Positions 17,202 through 33,616 are shown, numbered from the stretch's first letter. The stretch is DNA of 64,000 nucleotides from Minisyncoccia bacterium (GCA_050011835.1 JBEKII010000001.1:172262-236261), one strand, 5' to 3'. The notes: generated by a model not told the origin, from the sequence alone. A program made the numbers and translations.

Positions 17202-17957
17202 ATGAAAACCATTCCTCGCGTAATCATTTTTGACCTTGACGGCACGCTGACCGAAAGCAAGCAGCCGCTTACTCCGGAAGTGGGAGTGTGGCTTGCGCGC
17301 TTGGTGCTTAAGATGCCAGTTGCTGTGATGAGCGGCGGTTCCTATGCACAATTCCAAAAGCAATTTTTAGGCAATATGCCCAAAGATGCTGATTACAAAA
17401 ATCTATATCTTTTCCCCGCAAGCGCCACGCAGTGCTACGCATGGAAAGACGGCAGTTGGCGCATTCTCTATAACAATCTTTTCACTCCTGAAGAAAAATC
17501 TCATGTATTGCAAGCGCTTGCGGAGTCCCTCAAAGAAACGGATCTCGGTCATCCGCCGCAACTCTGGGGCGAACAAATTGAGGATCGCGGGTCGCAAATC
17601 ACTTGGTCGGCGCTCGGGCAACAGGCGCCTGTTGAAACGAAAAAGGCATGGGACCCGGACAGGGAAAAACGTTTGCCGCTCCAGAGAGCTCTTCTTCGGC
17701 GGATTCCTGATTTCTCAATTCGTATCAATGCGACGACTTCCATCGACATAACACGCAAGGGCATTACAAAAGCATATGGCATACGACAATTTTCAGAAAT
17801 TATTGCGACACCCGTTTCTGCGATGCTTTACGTCGGTGACGCTCTTTTCCCGGGGGGCAATGACGAAATCGTGAAAGAAACGGGGATTGAAACACAACAA
17901 GTCGATGGCCCGGACGAAACTGTAGAAATAATAGAAGGACTGCTTACCCTCGCATAA
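17202..17957 (+). CDS. HAD-IIB hydrolase, eukaryotic-type phosphomannomutase (PMM)-like
   Basis: IFDLDGTLT (DxDGT nucleophile motif) at N-terminus; C-terminal YVGDALFPGGNDEIV matches PMM2 FGDKTMPGGNDHEIF. Confidence 0.6.
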   Translation: MKTIPRVIIFDLDGTLTESKQPLTPEVGVWLARLVLKMPVAVMSGGSYAQFQKQFLGNMPKDADYKNLYLFPASATQCYAWKDGSWRILYNNLFTPEEKSHVLQALAESLKETDLGHPPQLWGEQIEDRGSQITWSALGQQAPVETKKAWDPDREKRLPLQRALLRRIPDFSIRINATTSIDITRKGITKAYGIRQFSEIIATPVSAMLYVGDALFPGGNDEIVKETGIETQQVDGPDETVEIIEGLLTLA

Positions 17958-19656
17958 GTCGCACGAGACGGATAGTTTCAAAAGAATAGCGGCCGCGAAG
18001 CGCATGGAAGACGGGCGAAAGGCGCTTGCTGCCGTTCTCGGCAAACGCCTCATGTATTTCATCAACTGCGCCGAGTGGCACGAGATGCGCGAAATCGGCG
18101 CGCGTCAATTTCCCCATTTCGGAAAGTTCCTCCAGATGTTTTACGATAGTGCTTATTGTCAATCCACGCTCTTTTGCTGCTTCTTTTAAATTTTTCGCAT
18201 CGCGTGCAGCTTGGAGCGTTTCCGCTAACCTCCCGGGCAAGTTCCTTTCGCGCGCGCCGCTTTGCGGCACGCGTTTTGTATCCGTATTCTCCATCCACGC
18301 CCCGCCCATTGCTTTTACAAACTTTTTCTGCATGGCGAGCGTTTCCGCTTCCGGCATTTCCGCGAATGCATCCCGCGCCGCGTCTGACGCGGCGCGAAAA
18401 TCCCTATCTTTCTTCAAAATTTCCGGATGTACTTGTAGCGCGCGTTCATTCATGCCCGTGAGATACAATCCCGAAAGCCGCCGTACTCGCGAGAGCGCAA
18501 CGTACCCCTGTCCGTATTCAAACGCTTTTGAAAGGTCAATAACCGCGGCATCCATGCTCATTCCTTGGCTTTTGTGCACCGTCATCGCGTAAGCGAGCCG
18601 GAGCGGTATCTGCGAGATGCTCGCGCGCACCTTGCCCCGCTCCTCAAGCTGCCATTCCATCGGCTCAGTAGTTATTCTCATGCCTTCCTTCGTTTTAATA
18701 ATCGGTAAATCGTCAGCGCTCCAGCCGCTGACGATGCCGAGCGTGCCGTTGACGAATTTCCCTTGAGGCGAATTCTTGGTAAACATCACTGCCGCACCTT
18801 CCTTCAGTTCCAAGATTTCCGGCGAGAGACAGCCGCGCATGAGTCCTTCTACAAGCGAGTCCTTCCCTTTTGAGCTCATGTGGAATTTCTTTGATTTGCC
18901 GGGAATTTTCGCAAGCTCGTCGGCATTGATACGGTCAACGTCGGCATTATGCGAAAAAAGTTTTGGCACCTCGCCCACGCTCGGTGTCTTTGACAAGGAC
19001 ATATGTCTCGATATGAGTCGTTCGCGGTGTTCTTCTTCAACTCGCCCTAAACGTATCGCCGAAAGTATGCCGAGAAATTCAGCATCGTCCTGCCGATATT
19101 GTTCGGTGATATAGCAGACGAGCGGATTCAACTCGCGCCAGACCGGCGACGCATAGGCGAATGCGCTGCCGCGATCGTGCGACACCGGCGGCAATTGGAA
19201 AAAATCGCCGACGAGAACGACCGGGAGCCCGCCGAACGGCGTATCAACGCGCCGCACCTCGCGGCATATAGCGTCCGCCATTTCAAATGTCGCCGCCGAA
19301 AGCATCGAGATCTCCTCAACGATAAGCACCTTCGCTTTCGTGATGCGCTTCGCGATATGTTCCTTGCTCGCGATGCGGTCCACATCGGCTCTCGTGAGCG
19401 ATTCGCTGATGCCGATGCCGCTCCACGAATGAAGCGTCATGCCGCCGACATGCGTCGCCGCGATACCGGTCGCCGCCGTTACCGAGGGTTCGATGCCCGA
19501 GGCGCGCAACCAATCAATATATTCATTTATCGTGTGCGTCTTCCCGCTCCCCGGCTCGCCAGTGAGGAATACGTTCGCGCCCGTCTTTAATATCGTGAGC
19601 GCCTCGCCTTGGGTCATTCGGACACTGTACCATCCTCTTTTTTGAATTCGAGGCAC
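17944..19656 (-). CDS. Pif1/RecD-family SF1B DNA helicase
   Basis: Walker A GEPGSGKTHTI, motif II LIVEEISM, Pif1-like layout with C-terminal UvrD_C_2-like region and HTH-like tail. Confidence 0.7.
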   Translation of the reverse strand: MPRIQKRGWYSVRMTQGEALTILKTGANVFLTGEPGSGKTHTINEYIDWLRASGIEPSVTAATGIAATHVGGMTLHSWSGIGISESLTRADVDRIASKEHIAKRITKAKVLIVEEISMLSAATFEMADAICREVRRVDTPFGGLPVVLVGDFFQLPPVSHDRGSAFAYASPVWRELNPLVCYITEQYRQDDAEFLGILSAIRLGRVEEEHRERLISRHMSLSKTPSVGEVPKLFSHNADVDRINADELAKIPGKSKKFHMSSKGKDSLVEGLMRGCLSPEILELKEGAAVMFTKNSPQGKFVNGTLGIVSGWSADDLPIIKTKEGMRITTEPMEWQLEERGKVRASISQIPLRLAYAMTVHKSQGMSMDAAVIDLSKAFEYGQGYVALSRVRRLSGLYLTGMNERALQVHPEILKKDRDFRAASDAARDAFAEMPEAETLAMQKKFVKAMGGAWMENTDTKRVPQSGARERNLPGRLAETLQAARDAKNLKEAAKERGLTISTIVKHLEELSEMGKLTRADFAHLVPLGAVDEIHEAFAENGSKRLSPVFHALRGRYSFETIRLVRLMRG

Positions 19657-24825: not shown

Positions 24826-27720
24826 TTAGCTAACTGTCAATGTAACGTTAAGGTTGGTCACCGCCCCCGTTGCATCCTCCACCGGTGCCGTGAGAACCCA
24901 TGTTCCCGCCGTTTCGAAGGTCTGCTCCGAATAAATCGATGGCGTCAACGTCCATACATTGTTAGTAGCGTCGTAAACCAAGTTGCCGTAGGTCGCACTG
25001 GTACTCATGCCCGTTCCGTTGATTGTCACTGGATAACTCGTGATGCTCGAGTTCGCCCCGGTTATATCCACGGTCGCCGACGTCATGTAGTAGGCGGGCG
25101 GAGTAGTGGACATATCCTGAGGCACGGTAATCGTCCAGTTCACTCCGGAACCGACAGAAGTGATGCTGGGGGGAAGGCCGCTACCGTTCAGTGTGATGCT
25201 AGAGATTGCTAGCGGTGCCGCCCAACCATTCGTGTTGGTGATAGTAAGAGCAACTGTGACAGATGTTCCGTTGACATTCCCAGTCAATGTATATGTTCCC
25301 GCCGGGAAGTTGGCCGGGATGAACATTGGAGATGGATTGCCAACAGAATCTTGTGTTCCGTCTTGGATTTTGTAGTTTGTTCCATCATAGGTTATGTAGA
25401 ACATCGCTGTCTGAGTTGTTGCACCCGGAAGCGTGTTGATCAGATGCTGACCCCAAGTAGAATTCAGATTTGCTGAGTCTGCTAACTGGTTTGCTTTGTA
25501 GTACGCGCTTAGGTCAACTCCGCCCGTTGAGGTCAGCATAAATGAGATTTTTGCTGAACTTGTTAACGTCACATTGAATGGATCTGTCGCTGTGCTACTG
25601 AATTGAATTGACGTGTCACCCGTAACGGTCAACGCCGCTGTAAGTGCAGGTCCCGAACCGGCTGCAGTTCCATTGGTTAAACCGACCGACGAGTTCCAGG
25701 CCGGAGTAACTGCTGGAGTGGTGAAATTCAAGACGGTGCCAGGATACCATGTCCCGTTGACATAAGACCATGCTGCGAAGTAATACGTTGTTTTCGGTGT
25801 AACCGAGAGCCCGCTGACTGACGAAAGAGGAGCAGAAAAAGAGGCATTCGCATCGATAGGGCCAGAAATGTCTCCGTCGTTGTAAACTCCGGTTGGAGGG
25901 ACTGACGACCCTGTGCTGAACGTAGACGTTGAAACCCAGAATGAGTACTCACTAGCAATAGCATTCCCATTAATTCCATTCAGTGTTGCGCCAGTCGAAG
26001 TTACATCACGGGCAGCAACCGTCAGAGTGGTAAGAGGAATAGGATCAAATACAGCCGAGAGTATATGGTGTGTAGTAACATTTGTGAAGGTATAACTAGC
26101 GTCTGTATTTCCTGTGATCCATGCGAATCCCGTCTGACCAACTACCGATTGACCATCGACAAGCACATCTGAAATGTAGTAGTTCTGATCTGCAGTAATT
26201 TCATATGTTGGACTGCTAAATGTTGGGGTAACTGCGCTTATAGAACCTCCATTGCTATCGGAAATAGTAATGTTTTGGTTGGCTTCAATTACAATAACTG
26301 TCCTTATCACTTCTATCGCATGATTGCCGGCTGCGTCAACGGAATCATATGTCACGTGGTACGTACCCGATATTGAAGGATTTACAACGTCTCCACCAAT
26401 CGTGACAAGATCTGTGCCATCAACAATATCTGTGGCTACCGCTCCGAGTTCTGTATAAGTTCCGCCGACTACTATGTAGGTCGGATTGCCAGTGTTGCCA
26501 GAGCCGTTCAGTGTGATAATCGGTATATTCACAACGATGTCAAAGGTCGCTGAGTTGGAGCTGCCCGCGTGATTGCTGTCGCCATCATAAGTTGCATTGG
26601 CTGTCGCCGTGCCGACGTCAACGTTGCCCGTATAGGTTGGCGTAAGTTGGCCGCTCTGTCCATCGGAAGTCGAGTAGGAAGCGGTGCATGGTGTAAGGGC
26701 TAAACCGGTGTAAGGCTGAGGAGAAGCGGGGCAAGAGACCGTGGTGACAGACGCGGCTTGTGCGACTGTAACCGTGCCGTTCACATAAGCGATGGTGTAG
26801 TTGGAATCAACTGCGCCGGTGCAGGACGAGACCGTTCCCGAGACCGAACAAGTCGGTTGAGTGGTGAGTGAAGCATCGGTGTCGCCGTTAACGAATCCTA
26901 AATAGGTCGGAGTGATTGTGGGCGGTGTGCCGCCATAGGTCATCGTGCCGTCAGAAGCCGTGATGGTGAGTGGTGCCTTTACAGTGAATGAAGCGGTTGT
27001 TGAAGCAGGATAAAAGTCAGGACTACCGGCTTGCGATGCTTCAAGAGTAACAGCGCCGACGCCAGTTATCGTGGTTGTTGAGTCATTAATCGTTACTGGT
27101 CCGGAAACAACGCTGAATATGATAGGCAGCAAACCGGATGTCGAAGTTGCGGTTAAACCAAACGGCGCATCTCCAAAAGTTTTATCTGAAAGAGGTCCAA
27201 ACGAAACAGTCTGACTTGCCGGAGGATTGGTGGTAATGCCATAACTCGTCGAATATGATCCGCCTGCTGCACCCTCTGGAACTTGTGCCTCTACAGTTAT
27301 TTGAATCTGTCTGCCTCCTTGATGCATATCAAGATCTTCATTGGGGTTCAAATACATTGGACTGCTTAATGTGCTAGACGCAGTTATGCCAATGGCTTGG
27401 TCTTCGTCAGTGGCGTTTAACGACTGAGCGGAATAAAATTGAATGTTGCCATCTGCTGGTATGTAACCAAGAGCACTCGTCCAATCGTCAAATTCCATCT
27501 GTAAAATAGTTTGGTCCTTTGGAACAGTCACATCAAAAACCCATTTCCATCCTTTATCATATCCCCTGCCTGCGGTTGCATATGTTTGTACTGCTATGAT
27601 TTGTGTTACGCCCAAGACAACAGTCGGAGCATCAGCTAACGCGGAAGGAACAGAAATCCCGAAAACTAGAACGGAAAGAAGAACGGGGAGAGAAACGCGC
27701 AGTGCATTTTTCATATTCAT
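24826..27720 (-). CDS. giant secreted surface protein with Ig-like / MBG(YGX)-like repeats
   Basis: Signal peptide, 964 aa, Thr/Ser/Gly-rich, repeated TxTYxG..NGDT..NYxI..V.GTLTV motifs. Confidence 0.6.
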   Translation of the reverse strand: MNMKNALRVSLPVLLSVLVFGISVPSALADAPTVVLGVTQIIAVQTYATAGRGYDKGWKWVFDVTVPKDQTILQMEFDDWTSALGYIPADGNIQFYSAQSLNATDEDQAIGITASSTLSSPMYLNPNEDLDMHQGGRQIQITVEAQVPEGAAGGSYSTSYGITTNPPASQTVSFGPLSDKTFGDAPFGLTATSTSGLLPIIFSVVSGPVTINDSTTTITGVGAVTLEASQAGSPDFYPASTTASFTVKAPLTITASDGTMTYGGTPPTITPTYLGFVNGDTDASLTTQPTCSVSGTVSSCTGAVDSNYTIAYVNGTVTVAQAASVTTVSCPASPQPYTGLALTPCTASYSTSDGQSGQLTPTYTGNVDVGTATANATYDGDSNHAGSSNSATFDIVVNIPIITLNGSGNTGNPTYIVVGGTYTELGAVATDIVDGTDLVTIGGDVVNPSISGTYHVTYDSVDAAGNHAIEVIRTVIVIEANQNITISDSNGGSISAVTPTFSSPTYEITADQNYYISDVLVDGQSVVGQTGFAWITGNTDASYTFTNVTTHHILSAVFDPIPLTTLTVAARDVTSTGATLNGINGNAIASEYSFWVSTSTFSTGSSVPPTGVYNDGDISGPIDANASFSAPLSSVSGLSVTPKTTYYFAAWSYVNGTWYPGTVLNFTTPAVTPAWNSSVGLTNGTAAGSGPALTAALTVTGDTSIQFSSTATDPFNVTLTSSAKISFMLTSTGGVDLSAYYKANQLADSANLNSTWGQHLINTLPGATTQTAMFYITYDGTNYKIQDGTQDSVGNPSPMFIPANFPAGTYTLTGNVNGTSVTVALTITNTNGWAAPLAISSITLNGSGLPPSITSVGSGVNWTITVPQDMSTTPPAYYMTSATVDITGANSSITSYPVTINGTGMSTSATYGNLVYDATNNVWTLTPSIYSEQTFETAGTWVLTAPVEDATGAVTNLNVTLTVS

Positions 27721-28321
27721 TTTTATTGTTTTATAAAAATCGTCTCCATTATTAATTAAGTTTTACTAACACAGCAGACAATAAAGAAATGAGCTGTCAA
27801 ACTCTCCCGTAAGTCTACTCCCCTGCTATAAGCCGTCAATCCACTTGACAACTATCAATATTTTCGTTTCTGTTATCAAATTATCTCTCAAATGTCCCCC
27901 ATCCGTGGAGCCCAAAATATTTCAGCCGACAGCGAGTAATTTCGATGGTGAGCGATGGCCGTTAATGATGCGTACCTTCCCGGAAGAAACATGAAAATGG
28001 TCAGCAATAATCGCGACGATACGACGATTCGCCAGATTTTGAGCTGGCTTTTCCTTAACAGAGATTTCAAAGTGATCGGGAGAAATCATTTTTAACGATT
28101 CCTTCTTTGCGGCCGCCCGAACCAGGACTTTTACATACATGCAGGTACGGTACCATGGCGGGTTCAAATATCCTCCATCCGGCGGAGCTAAAGTTCTGAA
28201 CGTGTCCTGAAAAAAATGTCCTGCGATGGCAAACGGCACGTGTACGTGTATATAGTAGAATACTTCCGGAATATAAATCAGCTCTTCCGTCGTTAAACCA
28301 TACTCTGAAAGGGGGAATGAG

Positions 28322-28546
28322 ATGAAAATACTGACTGCATTGTTCATTGCGATTGCGATTTTCACTCTGCCGCTCAACGAATGGGAAAAGGCCTCCGAAC
28401 AGGAGAGAACCGATGTCTGTGAGAGAATGTTTAGAAGTTTCAAAGCGGACAATCCCTCATGCCTGAGAGTGAGGATCGGCACCCTCATCATCGGAAACGA
28501 GCTGAAGGTGCTCATCGAATGCGTGGAAAGCGGAACAGGAATATGA
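28322..28546 (+). CDS. hypothetical small secreted protein
   Basis: GGGGGA RBS 8 nt before ATG; N-terminal signal-like helix; 74 aa. Confidence 0.35.
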   Translation: MKILTALFIAIAIFTLPLNEWEKASEQERTDVCERMFRSFKADNPSCLRVRIGTLIIGNELKVLIECVESGTGI

Positions 28547-28735
28547 CGATCATACCCGTACCTCCGAACCCCAGTCCGTGGACGTAGTGGTGGATACGGT
28601 AAAGAGAAAGGTGAGAGGGTTCGGAGGAAGCACCAACCGCTCATCTTTTTCACCGCCCGGAGAGCGTGGACCCGTAATGGTTATGCATGCCGATGGGGTA
28701 TGTTGCAAATAGCCAAGACACGAAAAACTTCTACG

Positions 28736-28804
28736 CCGCATGATTCGCTCTGCGGTTTTTCTTTTTATACAAAACACATTCGAATATAGTCCAGTCAGCG
28801 GAAG
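28736..28804 (+). repeat. junction element copy 1
   Basis: CCGCA..TGCGG hairpin + TTTTTCTTTTTAT + TTCGAATATAGTCCAGTCAGCGGAAG. Confidence 0.55.
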
Positions 28805-28903
28805 TTTTTATTGTTATTGACCGATGACTGCGAGAAAGCTAACATCAGCAGCGGAACTTTGCTGTTCCTTATTAAACTCAAGAGGGGAAGGGGGGTGAGG
28901 AAG

Positions 28904-29593
28904 ATGAACAAAATCAGCCGCAGAGCTATTCTGGAAATCGCGAAGACGCTTGTTGGCAGTATCATCAACAAGGTTCCTATTCAACAACAAGTTGTCCAAA
29001 AACTTTCCAACATTCTGGGAGTCCAGAGATGTGTGATCTTCAGAGTCGGCAATCATCGCGAAGGTGATGACTACGACGTTGAAATCACGGCTGGCGTGCC
29101 CATTGAAGAACACGGCATCGGCCTCAAGGAGTCCGTCACAAAACATCCAGACATCGAAGCAGCCGTTCGTCTCGGTAAAGTGATGGTTATTGCCGATCCC
29201 AAAACATCATCGATGACTGTTCATCTCAGAGGGATCATCGAAAAGAAAAACATCACACAGATCCTGTATCTGCCGCTTATTTCTTCCGGAGTAAAAGTCA
29301 AGACCATCGGTGTAATAGTGCTTGACGATGCGGGGGAGAAAGATAATTTTGAGCCGGAAGAGATAGAATTTTGCGGTGAGGTCGGCGAGCTTATATCGCT
29401 TACTATGGATCGCGAGGAAATCCTGATTCAACAGATGAGAGATATCATCATAAACCGTGTTGCCGCGTTAGGCGGATTTACGAGCCGATTGGACAAATCC
29501 ACAGAAGAATTCTCTAAGGGCGTCAAGAACATCCTGGAAGAAATTCGCATGCTTGAGGAGAGCTGTCCGAAAGGAGGCAGAATTAATTTTTAA
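28904..29593 (+). CDS. GAF-like domain protein with C-terminal helical tail
   Basis: Start at internal Met after GAGGAAG; GAF-like core (..QRCVIFRVGN...LYLPLISSGVKVKTIGVIVLDD..). Confidence 0.45.
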   Translation: MNKISRRAILEIAKTLVGSIINKVPIQQQVVQKLSNILGVQRCVIFRVGNHREGDDYDVEITAGVPIEEHGIGLKESVTKHPDIEAAVRLGKVMVIADPKTSSMTVHLRGIIEKKNITQILYLPLISSGVKVKTIGVIVLDDAGEKDNFEPEEIEFCGEVGELISLTMDREEILIQQMRDIIINRVAALGGFTSRLDKSTEEFSKGVKNILEEIRMLEESCPKGGRINF

Positions 29594-29617
29594 CATGCTC
29601 TAAAAAGGAGAAGGGCG

Positions 29618-29821
29618 ATGAAAAATTTAATTGTGCTGATATTAATGATAGGTTTGGCAGGTCTGAGTTTGGTTGCTTGTGCAGCTTGTGCAAATATCTC
29701 CTTAAAGATTTATCATCCAATCGCTGGATCATTGCCACCAAATGTCGGCTACAATGACTGCAGCGCATCTGAGATGTGGAAGTGTTACTATCCACCTGGA
29801 ATCGTGATCGCAGTATGGTGA
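29618..29821 (+). CDS. small Cys-rich putative lipoprotein
   Basis: AGGAGA RBS; signal peptide with lipobox-like SLVAC; 5 Cys in 45-aa mature part. Confidence 0.45.
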   Translation: MKNLIVLILMIGLAGLSLVACAACANISLKIYHPIAGSLPPNVGYNDCSASEMWKCYYPPGIVIAVW

Positions 29822-30063
29822 GGCTTTGGGCACCTGATCGAACAAGAAACACGATTGAGTGCCCTTTTTATTTAGGTCATAAATCGCTGATGCGTTTGAA
29901 GCCCGAGATACCTTTATTTCGTCTCAAAACTTAGGTTCTAACGTCGACCGATATACAGAGCAAAAAATTGACAGTATTTTTATATCGTGATATACAAGAA
30001 GACAGACCGCGACTCAGGCTCATTTGTACAAATTCATTCCAAACTGATTCAAGGAGGTATGCC

Positions 30064-30375
30064 ATGCTTAAAGCAATTGCAACCACGCCCTGGTACTTCC
30101 GCTTCTTACCAAACTTCTTCTGGATGAAACCGTTCGTCGAGAAAGTCCGGATCGTGGACATGGCGAAGCGCGATCTCCAGCCGATTTCATCAGGTGATCG
30201 GCAGCGATATACCAGTTCGTACGCATATGCTGTCTGGGTCAAGACAAGTCACGGCAACCTTTACCTGGAGGTATCGAAAGAGGTCTATCACCGCTTAAGG
30301 CGGAACGACCAGTTAATTGTTCGCTACCAATGTGGTCGCCGAACGGAGAGACTCAGAGGTCATATCGCGCGTTAA
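30064..30375 (+). CDS. hypothetical protein (103 aa)
   Basis: Strong AAGGAGG RBS 6 nt upstream of ATG 30064. Confidence 0.4.
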   Translation: MLKAIATTPWYFRFLPNFFWMKPFVEKVRIVDMAKRDLQPISSGDRQRYTSSYAYAVWVKTSHGNLYLEVSKEVYHRLRRNDQLIVRYQCGRRTERLRGHIAR

Positions 30376-30422
30376 CCGCTACCTCGATGAGACAGGAAGC
30401 TAAACTTCTATCTCATGACAGA

Positions 30423-30493
30423 GGGGCGGTTTTCTGTTTCTACACATTCTACACAAAACATATTTGAACATCTTCCAGCCAGCGGAGCTGACA
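30423..30493 (+). repeat. junction element copy A
   Basis: GGGGCGGTTTTCTGTTTC...TTTGAACATCTTCCAGCCAGCGGAGCTGACA. Confidence 0.55.
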
Positions 30494-30521
30494 GTTCATA
30501 AAATCTATGGTATATTAGGAA

Positions 30522-30752
30522 ATGATGAGAACACGGGATTTTGATAAAGAGCGCAGTGAGCAGTCACATTCACTCGCTGACTTTTTGAATGTCTATAACG
30601 AGAACCTTTCTCCCGCCTTTCCTCGGGCGTCAATTGCCTTGCTTAAAGAATTTAAGAACACTCATCAGAATCTCTTTAAGTCGAATGGGGTGTGGTCGTT
30701 GGACCTTCACCGGAAAAAGGTCATGGATTGGCTACATCCTCGCTCAACATAG
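30522..30752 (+). CDS. hypothetical protein (76 aa)
   Basis: ORF only; preferred over overlapping 30589-30936 ORF whose product is low-complexity. Confidence 0.25.
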   Translation: MMRTRDFDKERSEQSHSLADFLNVYNENLSPAFPRASIALLKEFKNTHQNLFKSNGVWSLDLHRKKVMDWLHPRST

Positions 30753-30799
30753 TTCGAACTGTCCCGACCGCGCTAGCGGAGACCAACTTTCTGGTCTGA

Positions 30800-30910
30800 C
30801 CGCCACACTTGAGGAATCCGCCTACCTGGGCCATATTTCCTCAGTGGGCGGTTTTCTCTTTTCATACCGAATAGGTTTGAACATCCTCTATCCAGCGGCA
30901 ACTCTAACGC
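30800..30910 (+). repeat. junction element copy B
   Basis: CCGCCACACTTGAGG...CCTCAGTGGGCGG hairpin + TTTTCTCTTTTC + GGTTTGAACATCCTCTATCCAGCGGCAACTCTAAC; right end overlaps RelE 3' end. Confidence 0.55.
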
Positions 30911-31182
30911 TTCCCCATTTCCTTGTAGACCACTGAACGATGAAGAATGGCGAGTATGAGAACCTTGGTTCCTGCGATACGAAAAACAACGCGATAGTCG
31001 CCAATACGAAGCTTGCGGTATCCTTTTAGGGAGCGCCGCAGGGGTTTGCCATAAAGATCGGGGTAGGAAGAGAGTTTCTCTTCGATAGCGGCTTGTATTT
31101 TAACTCTCCAAGCAGATGTGAGTTGCGGGATGTCTTCCTCGACGACTTTCTGCTGATAGATAACCTCAAAATCTAGCGCCAT
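30904..31182 (-). CDS. type II toxin, RelE/ParE family
   Basis: LRIGDYRVVFRIAGTKVLILAILHR C-terminal signature; 92 aa. Confidence 0.75.
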   Translation of the reverse strand: MALDFEVIYQQKVVEEDIPQLTSAWRVKIQAAIEEKLSSYPDLYGKPLRRSLKGYRKLRIGDYRVVFRIAGTKVLILAILHRSVVYKEMGKR

Positions 31183-31394
31183 GCCAGGGAGTGAGGAAGG
31201 AATGAAGTTTTGCCCACATCACGCTTTCTGGCAATTTCATCAAGAACCTGATCTTCTTCAATCTCAAGAGCTATCCGAAGAAGGTGTTCGGCCTTCGTTG
31301 CCTGAGGAACTTGGTCGCGTTTAGCGAGTTTGCCGAGCAAATCATCTAGATCTTTGGAAACACTAATATTAATGCGTTTTTTGGTGGTGGCCAT
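31173..31394 (-). CDS. antitoxin, ribbon-helix-helix (CopG-like) family
   Basis: MATTKKRINISVSKDLDDLL RHH N-terminus; stop overlaps RelE start by 10 nt; ORF could also open at TTG 31412. Confidence 0.6.
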   Translation of the reverse strand: MATTKKRINISVSKDLDDLLGKLAKRDQVPQATKAEHLLRIALEIEEDQVLDEIARKRDVGKTSFLPHSLAWR

Positions 31395-31878
31395 ATGAAT
31401 AGAGTGTATCAAAAGTGTATCTATGTCGTCAATAGTATTAGGGTGAACAAGTGCACATCGTGAACATTACACAATCATCAAGAATGCTAACTTCCCTACC
31501 CTACATAGGTTCGAGCATCCTCTAGCCAGCGGAACTGACATTTTTATAGTTTGTGATAAAATTAAAGCTAGACAGAACATTCCAAAAAGAAAGGGAGGGG
31601 TCCATTATGAGTCATGAGATCAGGATTGTGTCGGCGTACAATGGACGACTGCACGAATCAACCATTCACAGGGCCGAGGTGCTCATTGGCATCGAGGTAG
31701 ACAGTAAGGTAGTTTTATTTCAACAATGAGGAGGCGAGAAGGCACGGAGTGACCTATGAATATGAAAAAGGTCGAGAGACGATAATTCGGGCGAAGTTCT
31801 AACATTAATTAACTCCTCGAATTCTGTGTCTACGTGGCAGAGATTACTGCGACGAACTCATTAAAGGAGGTGGTCCCT

Positions 31879-32223
31879 GTGGGCAGTGGCAATGTTGTTG
31901 CCAAAAAGTATTCCTCTAACACATTGGTGGTCCATTGGACTCTCGGTTCTTCCCTCCGTTTTGCTTGGGATGAGGGCGAAAACAAGTGGCGCTGTGTTTC
32001 GAGTTATAAGCTTATATCCTGCAACGCAGACCCCGCATTGAAGGTACTTGAATTCACAGCAGCCCCAATTCCTGACCGCTGTTACACTCCTGAGGAAGCT
32101 AAATCTCTAGCCCAAAGGCCGAGCCGATGGAAAAAGAGTATCAACGACCCATCAATTGACATTGATGACCTGGTACTGGAAGTTATGAGGTCACGAGGTG
32201 TCAAAGTAGAATGTCTCTACTGA
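31879..32223 (+). CDS. hypothetical protein (114 aa, GTG start)
   Basis: AAGGAGG RBS 7 nt before GTG 31879; followed by strong terminator. Confidence 0.4.
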   Translation: MGSGNVVAKKYSSNTLVVHWTLGSSLRFAWDEGENKWRCVSSYKLISCNADPALKVLEFTAAPIPDRCYTPEEAKSLAQRPSRWKKSINDPSIDIDDLVLEVMRSRGVKVECLY

Positions 32224-32226
32224 CTA

Positions 32227-32313
32227 CCGCCCACGAAAGCCGGATGGCTCTCGTGGGCGGTTTCTGTTTTTTATACTAAAGTTCAAACATCCTCTATCCA
32301 GCTCAACTGACCC
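32227..32313 (+). repeat. junction element copy C (includes rho-independent terminator 32227-32274)
   Basis: CCGCCCACGA-loop-TCGTGGGCGG + TTTCTGTTTTTTAT, then GTTCAAACATCCTCTATCCAGCTCAACTGACCC. Confidence 0.6.
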
Positions 32314-32578
32314 AATTCCCTCTCAACCTGTGCCCAATTGAGAGTTCTGAACTCATCCAGCCAGCGGAGCTACAACGTCACCGTTGAGGATTATTACTTA
32401 CACCCCACATGTTATAGCTTTTTGACTCGGTATTATTCCGGTCGTCTCATCTATACCAAAAATAAAAGCGGAGTATTCCGGATATAATTTATATAGGATT
32501 AACCCCGCCCTGACTATGAAGAAAAAACACTGGTTCAAGAAAAAATTCCTTGAGAAAAGTTTTAAACGCGGAGCTGAT

Positions 32579-33283
32579 ATGAAATTCGGAGACGTACCGA
32601 ATACGGGAGCTCCTTACACCCGCATTATCTCCGGGATTCGACCCTCGTTCTCGAGGAACAGAGATACCGTTATTGTTACCATCTACAGGGCACTACAGAA
32701 GGATCCAAAACAAGACCTTTACTACGTGATTGCTATCGACCGACGACGGTGCACGTATGTAGAGGAAGTGGAATTCAGTGCAGACCATATACAACGCATG
32801 CATTCTGACGAAATCAGCATGGATTTGGAAAGCGAATATAATGGGTTCTCTCGCCTACTGAGTGATGCGATACCCACCGAATTTTCGAGACCCTCATTTA
32901 CTTTCCATCGCAAAGACGGCAATCGGTTTTTGACCCCGCTCGGAGTACGGCGCGTATCCGGTTTATTTACTAAGGGACTGATAGTCTTGCCTTCAGATTT
33001 TAACGATTCTCACACCAGAGAGGAGATAAATCTTCTCCGGCAAGAGATGGATGCATATCCGAAAGATCCTATTGGCAGTACTCTATTCGCATTAACACTT
33101 GCCTTGGTGGCTGAAGTTGGCCTTACGCGCCAAAAGATTCTTATTCCTGAGAAATCTAAGCCAACACCGACACCAGGAACACATCCTGTCTTGACTGGAG
33201 GAAGGAATTTTGAAGAGAGCCCCGAAGGTCAGGAGATGCGGAAATTATTGGCCCAGTCAATGGCGTATTACAAAAAACATTGA
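32579..33283 (+). CDS. hypothetical protein (about 235 aa)
   Basis: GGAG 5 nt before ATG 32579 (ORF opens at 32516). Confidence 0.35.
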   Translation: MKFGDVPNTGAPYTRIISGIRPSFSRNRDTVIVTIYRALQKDPKQDLYYVIAIDRRRCTYVEEVEFSADHIQRMHSDEISMDLESEYNGFSRLLSDAIPTEFSRPSFTFHRKDGNRFLTPLGVRRVSGLFTKGLIVLPSDFNDSHTREEINLLRQEMDAYPKDPIGSTLFALTLALVAEVGLTRQKILIPEKSKPTPTPGTHPVLTGGRNFEESPEGQEMRKLLAQSMAYYKKH

Positions 33284-33289
33284 TTGGAT

Positions 33290-33544
33290 TTATAATCCCC
33301 CTTGAGGATTAGGTATTGGCAGTAATTCTGGCCAACTTGTTTCAAACACCCCATTAATGTCCATGGATAATGTAATCTTCAACTCGTTCGGCGGTCGCTT
33401 GTACTCGTCAGCGGGGACGCGTTCGACAGGGAAAACGACACTCAAAGACTGACCGCCAACATGAAGAGGAGCAATTTTCTGTTTGACTTGGCATATCTCA
33501 AACCTATCTACGTTTCTTTTCTTTGCGCTACGGTGTTTGCTCAT
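33290..33544 (-). CDS. hypothetical small protein
   Basis: ORF only. Confidence 0.2.
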   Translation of the reverse strand: MSKHRSAKKRNVDRFEICQVKQKIAPLHVGGQSLSVVFPVERVPADEYKRPPNELKITLSMDINGVFETSWPELLPIPNPQGGL

Positions 33545-33616
33545 GCGTCCATAGTACCATCACGAGAAGAGTTGGAAGATCATAAACCACTTTTATAGAG
33601 GGCGGCTTTCTTACCT

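Follow-up and report, generated by a model that had tools for sequence, protein, structure and literature searches.

A tRNA-Asn-related 27-nt repeat at the boundaries of small gene units in Patescibacteria islands: a candidate recombination site

The window, that is the whole 64-kb stretch of DNA analysed, is part of a 277-kb JGI metagenome contig (Ga0427919_0000068) from a member of the Minisyncoccia, within the Patescibacteria/CPR, whose genes bear the NCBI locus tags ABSB00_*, and its neighbour genes are housekeeping genes such as miaA, clpB, dnaG, rpoD, rpoB/C and trmD. Set among these is an island of small genes in which a short motif, with the 27-nt consensus core GTTCGAACATCCTCTATCCAGCGGAGC, occurs seven times, always on the + strand and always within 4.2 kb (28162-32370); none is expected from shuffled sequence and no copy was found in the remaining 60 kb (Table 1). 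The closest species-level relatives are without the island and without its left flank; in the closest of them, L003, the island genes are missing and the HlyD/ABC/FtsX side is syntenic. Elsewhere in the window, 8 kb to the left of the island, lies a gene for a 570-aa PIF1-like helicase with a C-terminal HTH_40 domain (17944-19656), and a 964-aa MBG/Ig-like surface protein shows a 38-codon in-frame length difference between samples (24842-24949), being 926 aa in Ga0427951_005109.

Table 1. Features of the island and of the motif array, with positions counted from the first base of the window.
Feature	Position	Strand	Remarks
Cassette island	28189..33616	+	GC 0.46 vs 0.50-0.53 in flanks
Motif copy 1, GTTCAAATATCCTCCATCCGGCGGAGC	28162..28188	+	nhmmer E = 5e-7; first boundary of the array
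Motif copy 2, ATTCGAATATAGTCCAGTCAGCGGAAG	28778..28804	+	degenerate
Motif copy 3, ATTTGAACATCTTCCAGCCAGCGGAGC	30462..30488	+	
Motif copy 4, GTTTGAACATCCTCTATCCAGCGGCAA	30875..30901	+	
Motif copy 5, GTTCGAGCATCCTCTAGCCAGCGGAAC	31509..31535	+	
Terminator hairpin, 16-nt arms	32226..32261	+	-21 kcal/mol with flanks; then T-run and ATAC
Motif copy 6 (M1), GTTCAAACATCCTCTATCCAGCTCAAC	32281..32307	+	profile match
Spacer, 36-nt 'empty unit', TGACCCAATTCCCTCTCAACCTGTGCCCAATTGAGA	32308..32343	+	between the 27-nt cores of M1 and M2
Weak hairpin CTCTCAA-N11-TTGAGAG	32320..32344	.	7-bp stem, 11-nt loop
Motif copy 7 (M2), GTTCTGAACTCATCCAGCCAGCGGAGC	32344..32370	+	profile match
Unit 1			74-aa secreted peptide
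Unit 2			GAF protein, 67-aa and 103-aa ORFs
Unit 3			76-aa protein
Unit 4			ParE/RHH toxin-antitoxin pair, opposite strand
Unit 5			40-aa and 129-aa ORFs
Unit 6			36-nt 'empty' unit
Unit 7			255-aa ORFan (and 84 aa reversed)

Most copies of the motif lie ~20 nt past a strong terminator hairpin with a T-run and ATAC, and a sigma70-like promoter follows most of them at a variable distance. The motif takes its place between the terminator of one unit and the promoter of the next. Copy 2 has a terminator hairpin before it and TTGACC-N17-TAACAT 12 nt after it. Copy 3 runs with its last base into the -35 element of the 76-aa gene's promoter, CTGACA-N17-TATATT, and copy 5 adjoins, again with its last base overlapping, the promoter that serves the 40-aa and 129-aa genes, CTGACA-N16-TAAAAT. 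Copy 4 stands where the 76-aa gene and ParE converge, between their 3' ends, and has neither a + strand gene nor a promoter downstream. The terminator that closes the 129-aa unit lies 19 nt ahead of M1, and its CCCACGA...TCGTGGG stem also precedes motif copies at loci L083, L086, L092, L096 and L103 of other contigs. With the exception of M1 and M2 the copies in the window are 413-1684 nt apart and the intervals carry genes. Copy 1 is ~19 nt upstream of the likely start of a divergent DUF167 gene. The public call for this DUF167/YggU gene (141 aa, 27922-28347) crosses copy 1, its Pfam domain covers the last 70 residues only, and a start at about 28143 (MYVKVLV...) would make the copy intergenic.

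A scan of public metagenome contigs with the exact pattern RTTYRARYATCYTCYAKCCRGCGG returned 29 stretches, about 24 of which are true copies; five (L085/L099, L091/L094 and L097) lie in GC-rich coding DNA and were treated as chance or unrelated matches. The core is often identical among the true copies, both flanks being unrelated, and in total about 20 unrelated contigs carry it, where it bounds small units of promoter, gene and terminator. At 12 loci there are 2-5 copies, confined to a single strand per locus and spaced by 210-2892 nt. Information content is 1.1-2.1 bits within the 27-mer and about 0 outside it, except for a weak T-run/ATAC signal upstream; the conservation is biased by the search pattern, which fixes most of positions 1-24, positions 25-27 and the flanks being free of that bias. 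It is evident from this alignment that the motif forms a family with sharp 27-nt bounds, conserved across many contigs, and that its copies are strictly co-oriented within arrays. The first-pass annotation of the window had given the motif 33-35 nt; the conserved unit is shorter than this, and the additional bases (CTGAC.) are the -35-like start of the next unit, present in some copies only. No copy was found at 80 other Patescibacteria loci (1.19 Mb), so that the motif is no promoter or terminator element common to the phylum, and the papers searched contained neither the motif sequence nor such arrays in Patescibacteria. The genes carried by this and the other arrays are typical accessory ones and encode ParE/RHH, Zeta toxin, GAF, NYN nuclease, nucleotidyltransferase, PEBP, trypsin-like protease and Exo_endo_phos proteins, and many ORFans. 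A phage origin was considered and rejected, there being no DNA match in the phage collection, no PHROG hits for the cassette proteins and no motif copy in the viral contig collection.

Several variants of the 27-mer were encountered. A second 27-nt boundary variant, GTTCTAACATCGACCAACRTRCGGRGC, occurs at L088:97-123, at both ends of L096 and in L090 (- strand, around 13620), and its first 10 nt, GTTCTAACAT, recur in the window at 31796-31805, between the 40-aa and 129-aa genes, possibly as a decayed boundary. Copies at L093:1145-1195 and L106:2335-2385 (- strand) are interrupted, at differing internal positions, by a palindromic insert of ~19-22 nt (CCTGCCTGC...GCAGGCAGG), and L093:1682-1708 is a motif copy minus 4 central bases.

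The main rival to a role in recombination takes the motif for a regulatory site to which a protein binds (an operator, an activator site or an UP-like element), placed upstream of the promoters of a co-regulated set of island genes and spread along with them, and much in the layout is in keeping with this. The copies in the window are all on the + strand and most precede + strand genes, copies 3 and 5 abut CTGACA promoters, TTGACA lies within 2-6 nt downstream of many copies elsewhere, and the sole palindromic part of the motif, the 8-nt GTTCGAAC, could bind a dimeric factor; M1 and M2 would then be a tandem operator before the 255-aa gene. However, the distance from motif to promoter varies from -1 to more than 12 nt, that is from overlap with the -35 element to clear separation, some copies have no promoter after them, copy 4 stands where none is needed, and at L089 and L087 the gene that follows the motif is reversed. 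A 27-nt asymmetric site that is near-identical across unrelated contigs would be atypical of an operator, and its absence from the 1.19 Mb of other Patescibacteria DNA also speaks against one. In L090 and L083 the 76-aa gene has a homologous promoter but no motif; in the window, then, the motif is joined directly to the -35 element of a pre-existing unit. A regulatory site would account for the overlap with -35 elements, but not for the one-sided breaks in homology, the half-sites or the hybrid with a tRNA 3' end described below, and taken together this reading is considered unlikely. An alternative sigma-factor promoter was rejected, since no fixed element is found downstream of the motif. 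So-called mobile promoters likewise place an identical short sequence before unrelated genes, partly overlapping the -35, but they differ from the present copies in respect of the variable spacing, copies without a downstream gene, half-sites and tRNA-end homology seen here.

Comparison of the flanks of different copies revealed where homology begins and ends. Loci L088 and L096, from the same sample, are identical for 80+ nt through the last base of the motif and unrelated thereafter. The left flank alone is shared by L096/L103, L083/L103 and L092/L096, and the right flank alone by L106/L109, so that the two flanks of the motif assort independently. Some copies are incomplete. Those at L086 (twice) and L089 are broken after position 14, and M1 in the window together with copies at L087, L092 and L111 is broken after position 20-22. 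These recurrent break points hint at two exchange points about 8 bp apart, in a pattern based on fewer than ten copies. Locus L096:1-5124 (5.1 kb) has identical first and last 120 nt, and is thus either circular or a tandem repeat; it contains only motif-bounded cassettes and one 259-aa ORF of unknown family on the opposite strand, and its junction is spanned by L084, from another sample. It could be an excised circle of several cassettes or an effect of repeats on assembly.

An alignment of the motif with tRNA-Asn places it at the 3' end of the tRNA, where it runs from T-loop through T-stem and acceptor strand to the discriminator, with five inserted bases (p < 0.001, also when the T-loop is left out), and the same comparison with tRNA-Trp gave no signal. 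A tRNA-Asn gene stands at the start of the arrays in L083, L100 and L119. In the window the only tRNA is a tRNA-Trp at 2405 and there is none at the edge of the island. The relatives L100 and L122 (Fpg 87% identical) are informative in this regard. In L122 tRNA-Asn is followed by a 35-nt hairpin and then by a conserved non-coding element, here called X; in L100 tRNA-Asn and X are separated by an 830-nt block made up of a promoter, a nucleotidyltransferase gene, the 27-nt motif and a hairpin. By this comparison the two relatives differ cleanly by a single cassette, present in L100 and absent from L122, with the tRNA end at one border and the motif at the other. The end of a cassette in L119 reads GTTCTAACATCA followed by TCCTACCGCCGGAGC, the last 15 nt being the 3' end of the host's own tRNA-Asn; as aligned, this site consists of a 5' part from the motif and a 3' part from the host tRNA, which matches the expectation for a recombinant site. 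True tRNA-end repeats of 12-16 nt are also present in L083 and L100. That the motif is simply part of a real tRNA or conserved gene was rejected, since no copy overlaps a tRNA and the bases upstream form no T-stem.

The first-pass annotation had argued for a history of modules and recombination, as against a mere repetition of promoters, and this is supported by the conserved 27-nt boundary in many unrelated contigs, the independent flanks, the position of copy 4 and the L100/L122 pair. The likeness to tRNA-Asn admits a different reading, in which the motif acts in RNA as a tRNA-like 3' module, serving as a processing or stability signal in transcripts. The resemblance to the T-loop and the 3' strand of the acceptor, and the hairpin insertions within the motif in variants L093 and L106, are in accord with it. 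Since the motif comes after strong intrinsic terminators and before promoters, though, it would be expected to remain mostly untranscribed, the complementary 5' strand for an acceptor stem is missing, and Rfam gave no match at the gathering threshold or up to E = 5. A role in RNA is therefore regarded as most improbable.

A number of other features were noted around tRNA-Asn in these relatives. Element X is a strongly folding, non-coding element of about 110-145 nt, conserved downstream of tRNA-Asn and its terminator, and was located at L119:5190-5660 (- strand), L100:2035-2160, L103:3250-3400, L093:2075-2205, L089:40-210 and L122:1-105. It opens with a tRNA-Asn-like 5' acceptor start (CTCCGSSGGAG), contains AGGAYTCGAAG and ends in 12-16 nt identical to the host tRNA-Asn 3' end; in L119 three X units stand in tandem, each followed by a terminator. 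It folds with z-scores of -4 to -5, without a match in Rfam, and may be an ncRNA derived from tRNA-Asn or a group of decoys for the att site. In several Patescibacteria relatives (L083:11231-11461 on the - strand, L119:5750-6000, L122 and L124:3745-3985) the anticodon loop of tRNA-Asn(GUU) is split after CTGT by a group I intron, which is absent from L100 and L117; ARAGORN misses the intron-bearing genes. A 62-nt promoter region (TTTAGCTATAGTTAG...TTGTTATACT) is duplicated in L100, at 2932-2993 and 1284-1344, one duplicate lying after tRNA-Asn and before the inserted nucleotidyltransferase gene, the other after the last motif and before the housekeeping gene def. The same region is found once in L119, after the last boundary. 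Finally, L124:1974-3785 is a gene for a 603-aa large serine recombinase, convergent on tRNA-Asn and with its ORF running antisense across the 3' half of the tRNA; the locus has neither cassettes nor motif, and the same flank is thus also used by a recombinase-bearing element.

Attempts to find an enzyme within the arrays were negative. Signature regexes for tyrosine and serine recombinases, run over the window and ~170 kb of loci that carry arrays, gave no match, box II of the tyrosine recombinases was absent from all frames of the same DNA, Pfam searches of about 60 neighbouring ORFs returned no recombinase, and no array unit contains an integrase or a replication module. An IS200-like Y1 transposase is encoded two genes from the L100 array, which brings in a further reading: that the motif is a small non-autonomous repeat of the REP/MITE kind, inserted past terminator hairpins by a transposase (e.g. 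Y1/HUH), M1 and M2 being two independent insertions. The fixed distance of ~20 nt between the copies and the hairpins would suit such insertion. REP/BIME and MITE elements have a palindromic unit or terminal inverted repeats and are dispersed in both orientations. The motif, by comparison, is non-palindromic except for GTTCGAAC, has no complement nearby and lies on one strand only, its copies being co-oriented and clustered (7 in 4.2 kb, 0 in the other 60 kb); target-site duplications are absent, and the Y1 gene was found in L100 only. The motif was accordingly rejected as a member of the known REP/BIME/MITE families, and insertion by a transposase is held to be very unlikely.

Of the known systems that assemble genes into arrays, integrons and CALINs, the latter being clusters of attC sites lacking an integrase, share several properties with the arrays described here. 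In both there are same-orientation arrays of small genes, mostly of unknown function, together with toxin-antitoxin pairs, a recombination-type repeat stands after every unit, and units without an ORF occur; as in CALINs, no integrase is adjacent. An attC site, however, is an imperfect palindrome of 57-141 nt with complementary R''(RYYYAAC)/R'(GTTRRRY) and L''/L' boxes, and is conserved in structure, whereas the repeat of the present family is linear, conserved in sequence and 27 nt long. Identity with attC was rejected, since 41 of the 46 copies lack a complementary partner within 250 nt and the hairpins upstream, perfect stems of the terminator type, are unrelated in sequence. A complete integron was rejected too, no IntI being found in the window or the array loci. 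Integron cassettes are mostly promoterless and are read from a common promoter, Pc; the units here have sigma70-like promoters and strong terminators of their own and so do not conform. In place of attI, the apparent primary site here is the tRNA-Asn 3' end. CRISPR arrays comprise at least three near-identical repeats separated by even intervals of 25-40 nt, a leader and, in most cases, cas genes. This possibility was discarded on the grounds that there is a single repeat-36 nt-repeat unit with copies differing at 10 or more positions, that the other spacings are 413-1684 nt and hold genes, and that no tandem family was detected.

In the tycheposons of Prochlorococcus each further integration at a given tRNA displaces the older elements outward, and att repeats made of partial tRNA copies are left between the cargo modules (bioRxiv 10.1101/2020.12.28.424599). 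The arrays in L083, L100 and L119 are similar in that they start at tRNA-Asn and have a boundary repeat resembling the tRNA 3' end, the repeat in L119 being partly equal to that of the host. They differ in that the units are only 0.04-2.9 kb, with no integrase, replication or packaging genes, in that the boundary is a separate 27-mer, which carries 5 bases more than the tRNA end and keeps this form across hosts, and in that the array in the window has no tRNA at its edge. The Xer-exploiting elements (IMEX) and pdif modules offer another parallel, with integrase-less modules, a site of ~28 bp, a host recombinase encoded elsewhere and direct-repeat arrays at one chromosomal site. The orientation of pdif sites alternates, whereas sites of the present family are all direct. 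The dif site itself is a 28-bp sequence with two partly symmetric 11-bp arms for XerC and XerD and is found at the replication terminus. At 27 nt the motif is near to it in length, but no arm symmetry of the XerC/XerD type is visible, the motif is not known to resemble any dif sequence, and the skew profile of the window shows no clear terminus switch at the island. Neither the dif site nor the Xer genes of the genome lie within the window.

The region that first drew attention to the motif is the doublet formed by M1 and M2. The first-pass annotation reported two back-to-back copies here, about 60 nt apart and with no ORF between them, and the arrangement proved to be real, the copies being 63 nt apart from start to start, with a gap of 36 nt in which an ORF search found none. 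It is the shortest unit among all the arrays, the next being 210 and 241 nt. Positions 1-22 of M1 follow the consensus with a single mismatch and its final 5 nt are degenerate (TCAAC against GGAGC). In M2 the 3' 15 nt equal the consensus and the 5' third is damaged by indels (one inserted nt, and TCA where the consensus has ATCC). The spacer starts, as do units 3 and 5, with the -35-like TGACC, and is without the usual unit ending of terminator, T-run and ATAC. The perfect hairpin claimed for this interval exists as a 7-bp stem with an 11-nt loop, the final base of which is the first base of M2, but it is weak: as DNA it folds at -4.9 kcal/mol, with z = -2.9 when a 43-nt frame is taken, and folding of the whole 96 nt around the doublet was indistinguishable from shuffles.

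Two origins had been proposed for the doublet, the scar of an excised unit and an empty cassette. The first is not supported, since a site-specific excision would reduce two sites to one and not leave a pair 36 nt apart. The interval does hold a short unit without an ORF, and the damage to M1 and M2, in each case towards the spacer, gives it a decayed or aberrant look. Alternatively, one motif copy may have been duplicated locally, or by slippage, and have since decayed, in which case the doublet would be meaningless as a unit, whatever the role of the motif. Such an event is suggested by the two copies being full length and each damaged on the spacer side, by a short direct repeat, CTCAAC(C)TG, at 32302 and 32322, and by the lack of any comparably short unit in other arrays. 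Against this, the central bases (TCTATCC and TCCAGCC) assign M1 and M2 to different sub-variants, M2 being nearest to copy 3 and unlike M1, which makes a recent tandem duplication of M1 improbable, and the spacer opens with TGACC like other units; on balance duplication is judged fairly unlikely. The simplest reading, given the damage to the inner sides of both copies, is that the doublet is a vestigial or aberrant unit rather than the scar of a clean excision, and for the same reason it is probably no longer active. It is of lesser importance in itself, and its interest is mainly as a hint at the exchange points within the site.

Five other samples yielded this strain too, its sequence there being identical and the doublet being covered in two of the five; the source metagenomes are JGI 3300037993, 3300038429, 3300018013 and 3300018057 and SRR13021941. 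The contigs that carry the ParE gene all belong to one strain. Across these six samples no alternative arrangement, filled or empty variant or excised circle of the locus was seen, and no gene inserted between the two motifs, the variant for which the first-pass annotation proposed to compare relatives, came to light. No diverged relative carrying the locus was found, which is attributable to the downstream 255-aa gene being an ORFan; its protein has no homologues. Contigs of the strain from three other samples end at 31625, 31713 and 31753, and one further contig begins at 32203. The 129-aa gene lies between these breaks, which may reflect strain-level variation or low coverage of its unit.

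The explanation that is held to be probable, if not by much, is that the motif is an att-like recombination site of an integrase-less cassette system, of an integron-like or tRNA-island-like kind. The 27-bp site, related to the tRNA-Asn 3' end from T-loop to discriminator base, would mark the boundaries of cassettes in Patescibacteria islands, each cassette bringing its own promoter, gene or genes and terminator. A circular or incoming cassette with one site would recombine with a copy already in place or else with the 3' end of tRNA-Asn, and successive events of this kind would build arrays in the same orientation with a site after every unit. The recombinase would act in trans, being encoded away from the arrays, and the sixth unit, of 36 nt, would probably be the product of an internal deletion or of an imprecise exchange at the site. 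As no recombinase, no symmetry, no tRNA at the edge of the array in the window and no circles of this locus were found, the model of site-specific recombination is drawn from comparative anatomy; it is from this that we infer the specificity of the exchange, the location of the crossover, the action of the enzyme in trans and the origin of the 36-nt unit. Counting against an att-like site are the three copies in the window that overlap a -35 element and the want of inverted-repeat symmetry in the motif, a symmetry that most core sites of tyrosine and serine recombinases possess.

A broader proposal is that these arrays belong to an undescribed cassette-capture system of the Patescibacteria, one that moves whole transcription units by means of a tRNA-Asn-derived 27-bp site and a recombinase supplied in trans, with arrays seeded at tRNA-Asn and present also at secondary chromosomal sites, of which the one in the window would be an example. 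This is put forward more tentatively, as a serious possibility that falls somewhat short of being probable. If true, it would be a functional analogue of the integron with a different site and probably a different enzyme. The Patescibacteria (CPR) have tiny genomes with few recognised mobile elements, few mechanisms of gene transfer are known in the phylum, and the acquisition of accessory genes in the group is poorly understood. A conserved 27-bp boundary that makes exchangeable units of toxin-antitoxin, signalling and ORFan genes would, if the proposal is true, provide a concrete mechanism of gene flux in this large uncultured group, and the 27-mer offers a simple search key for the flexible gene pool of the Patescibacteria.
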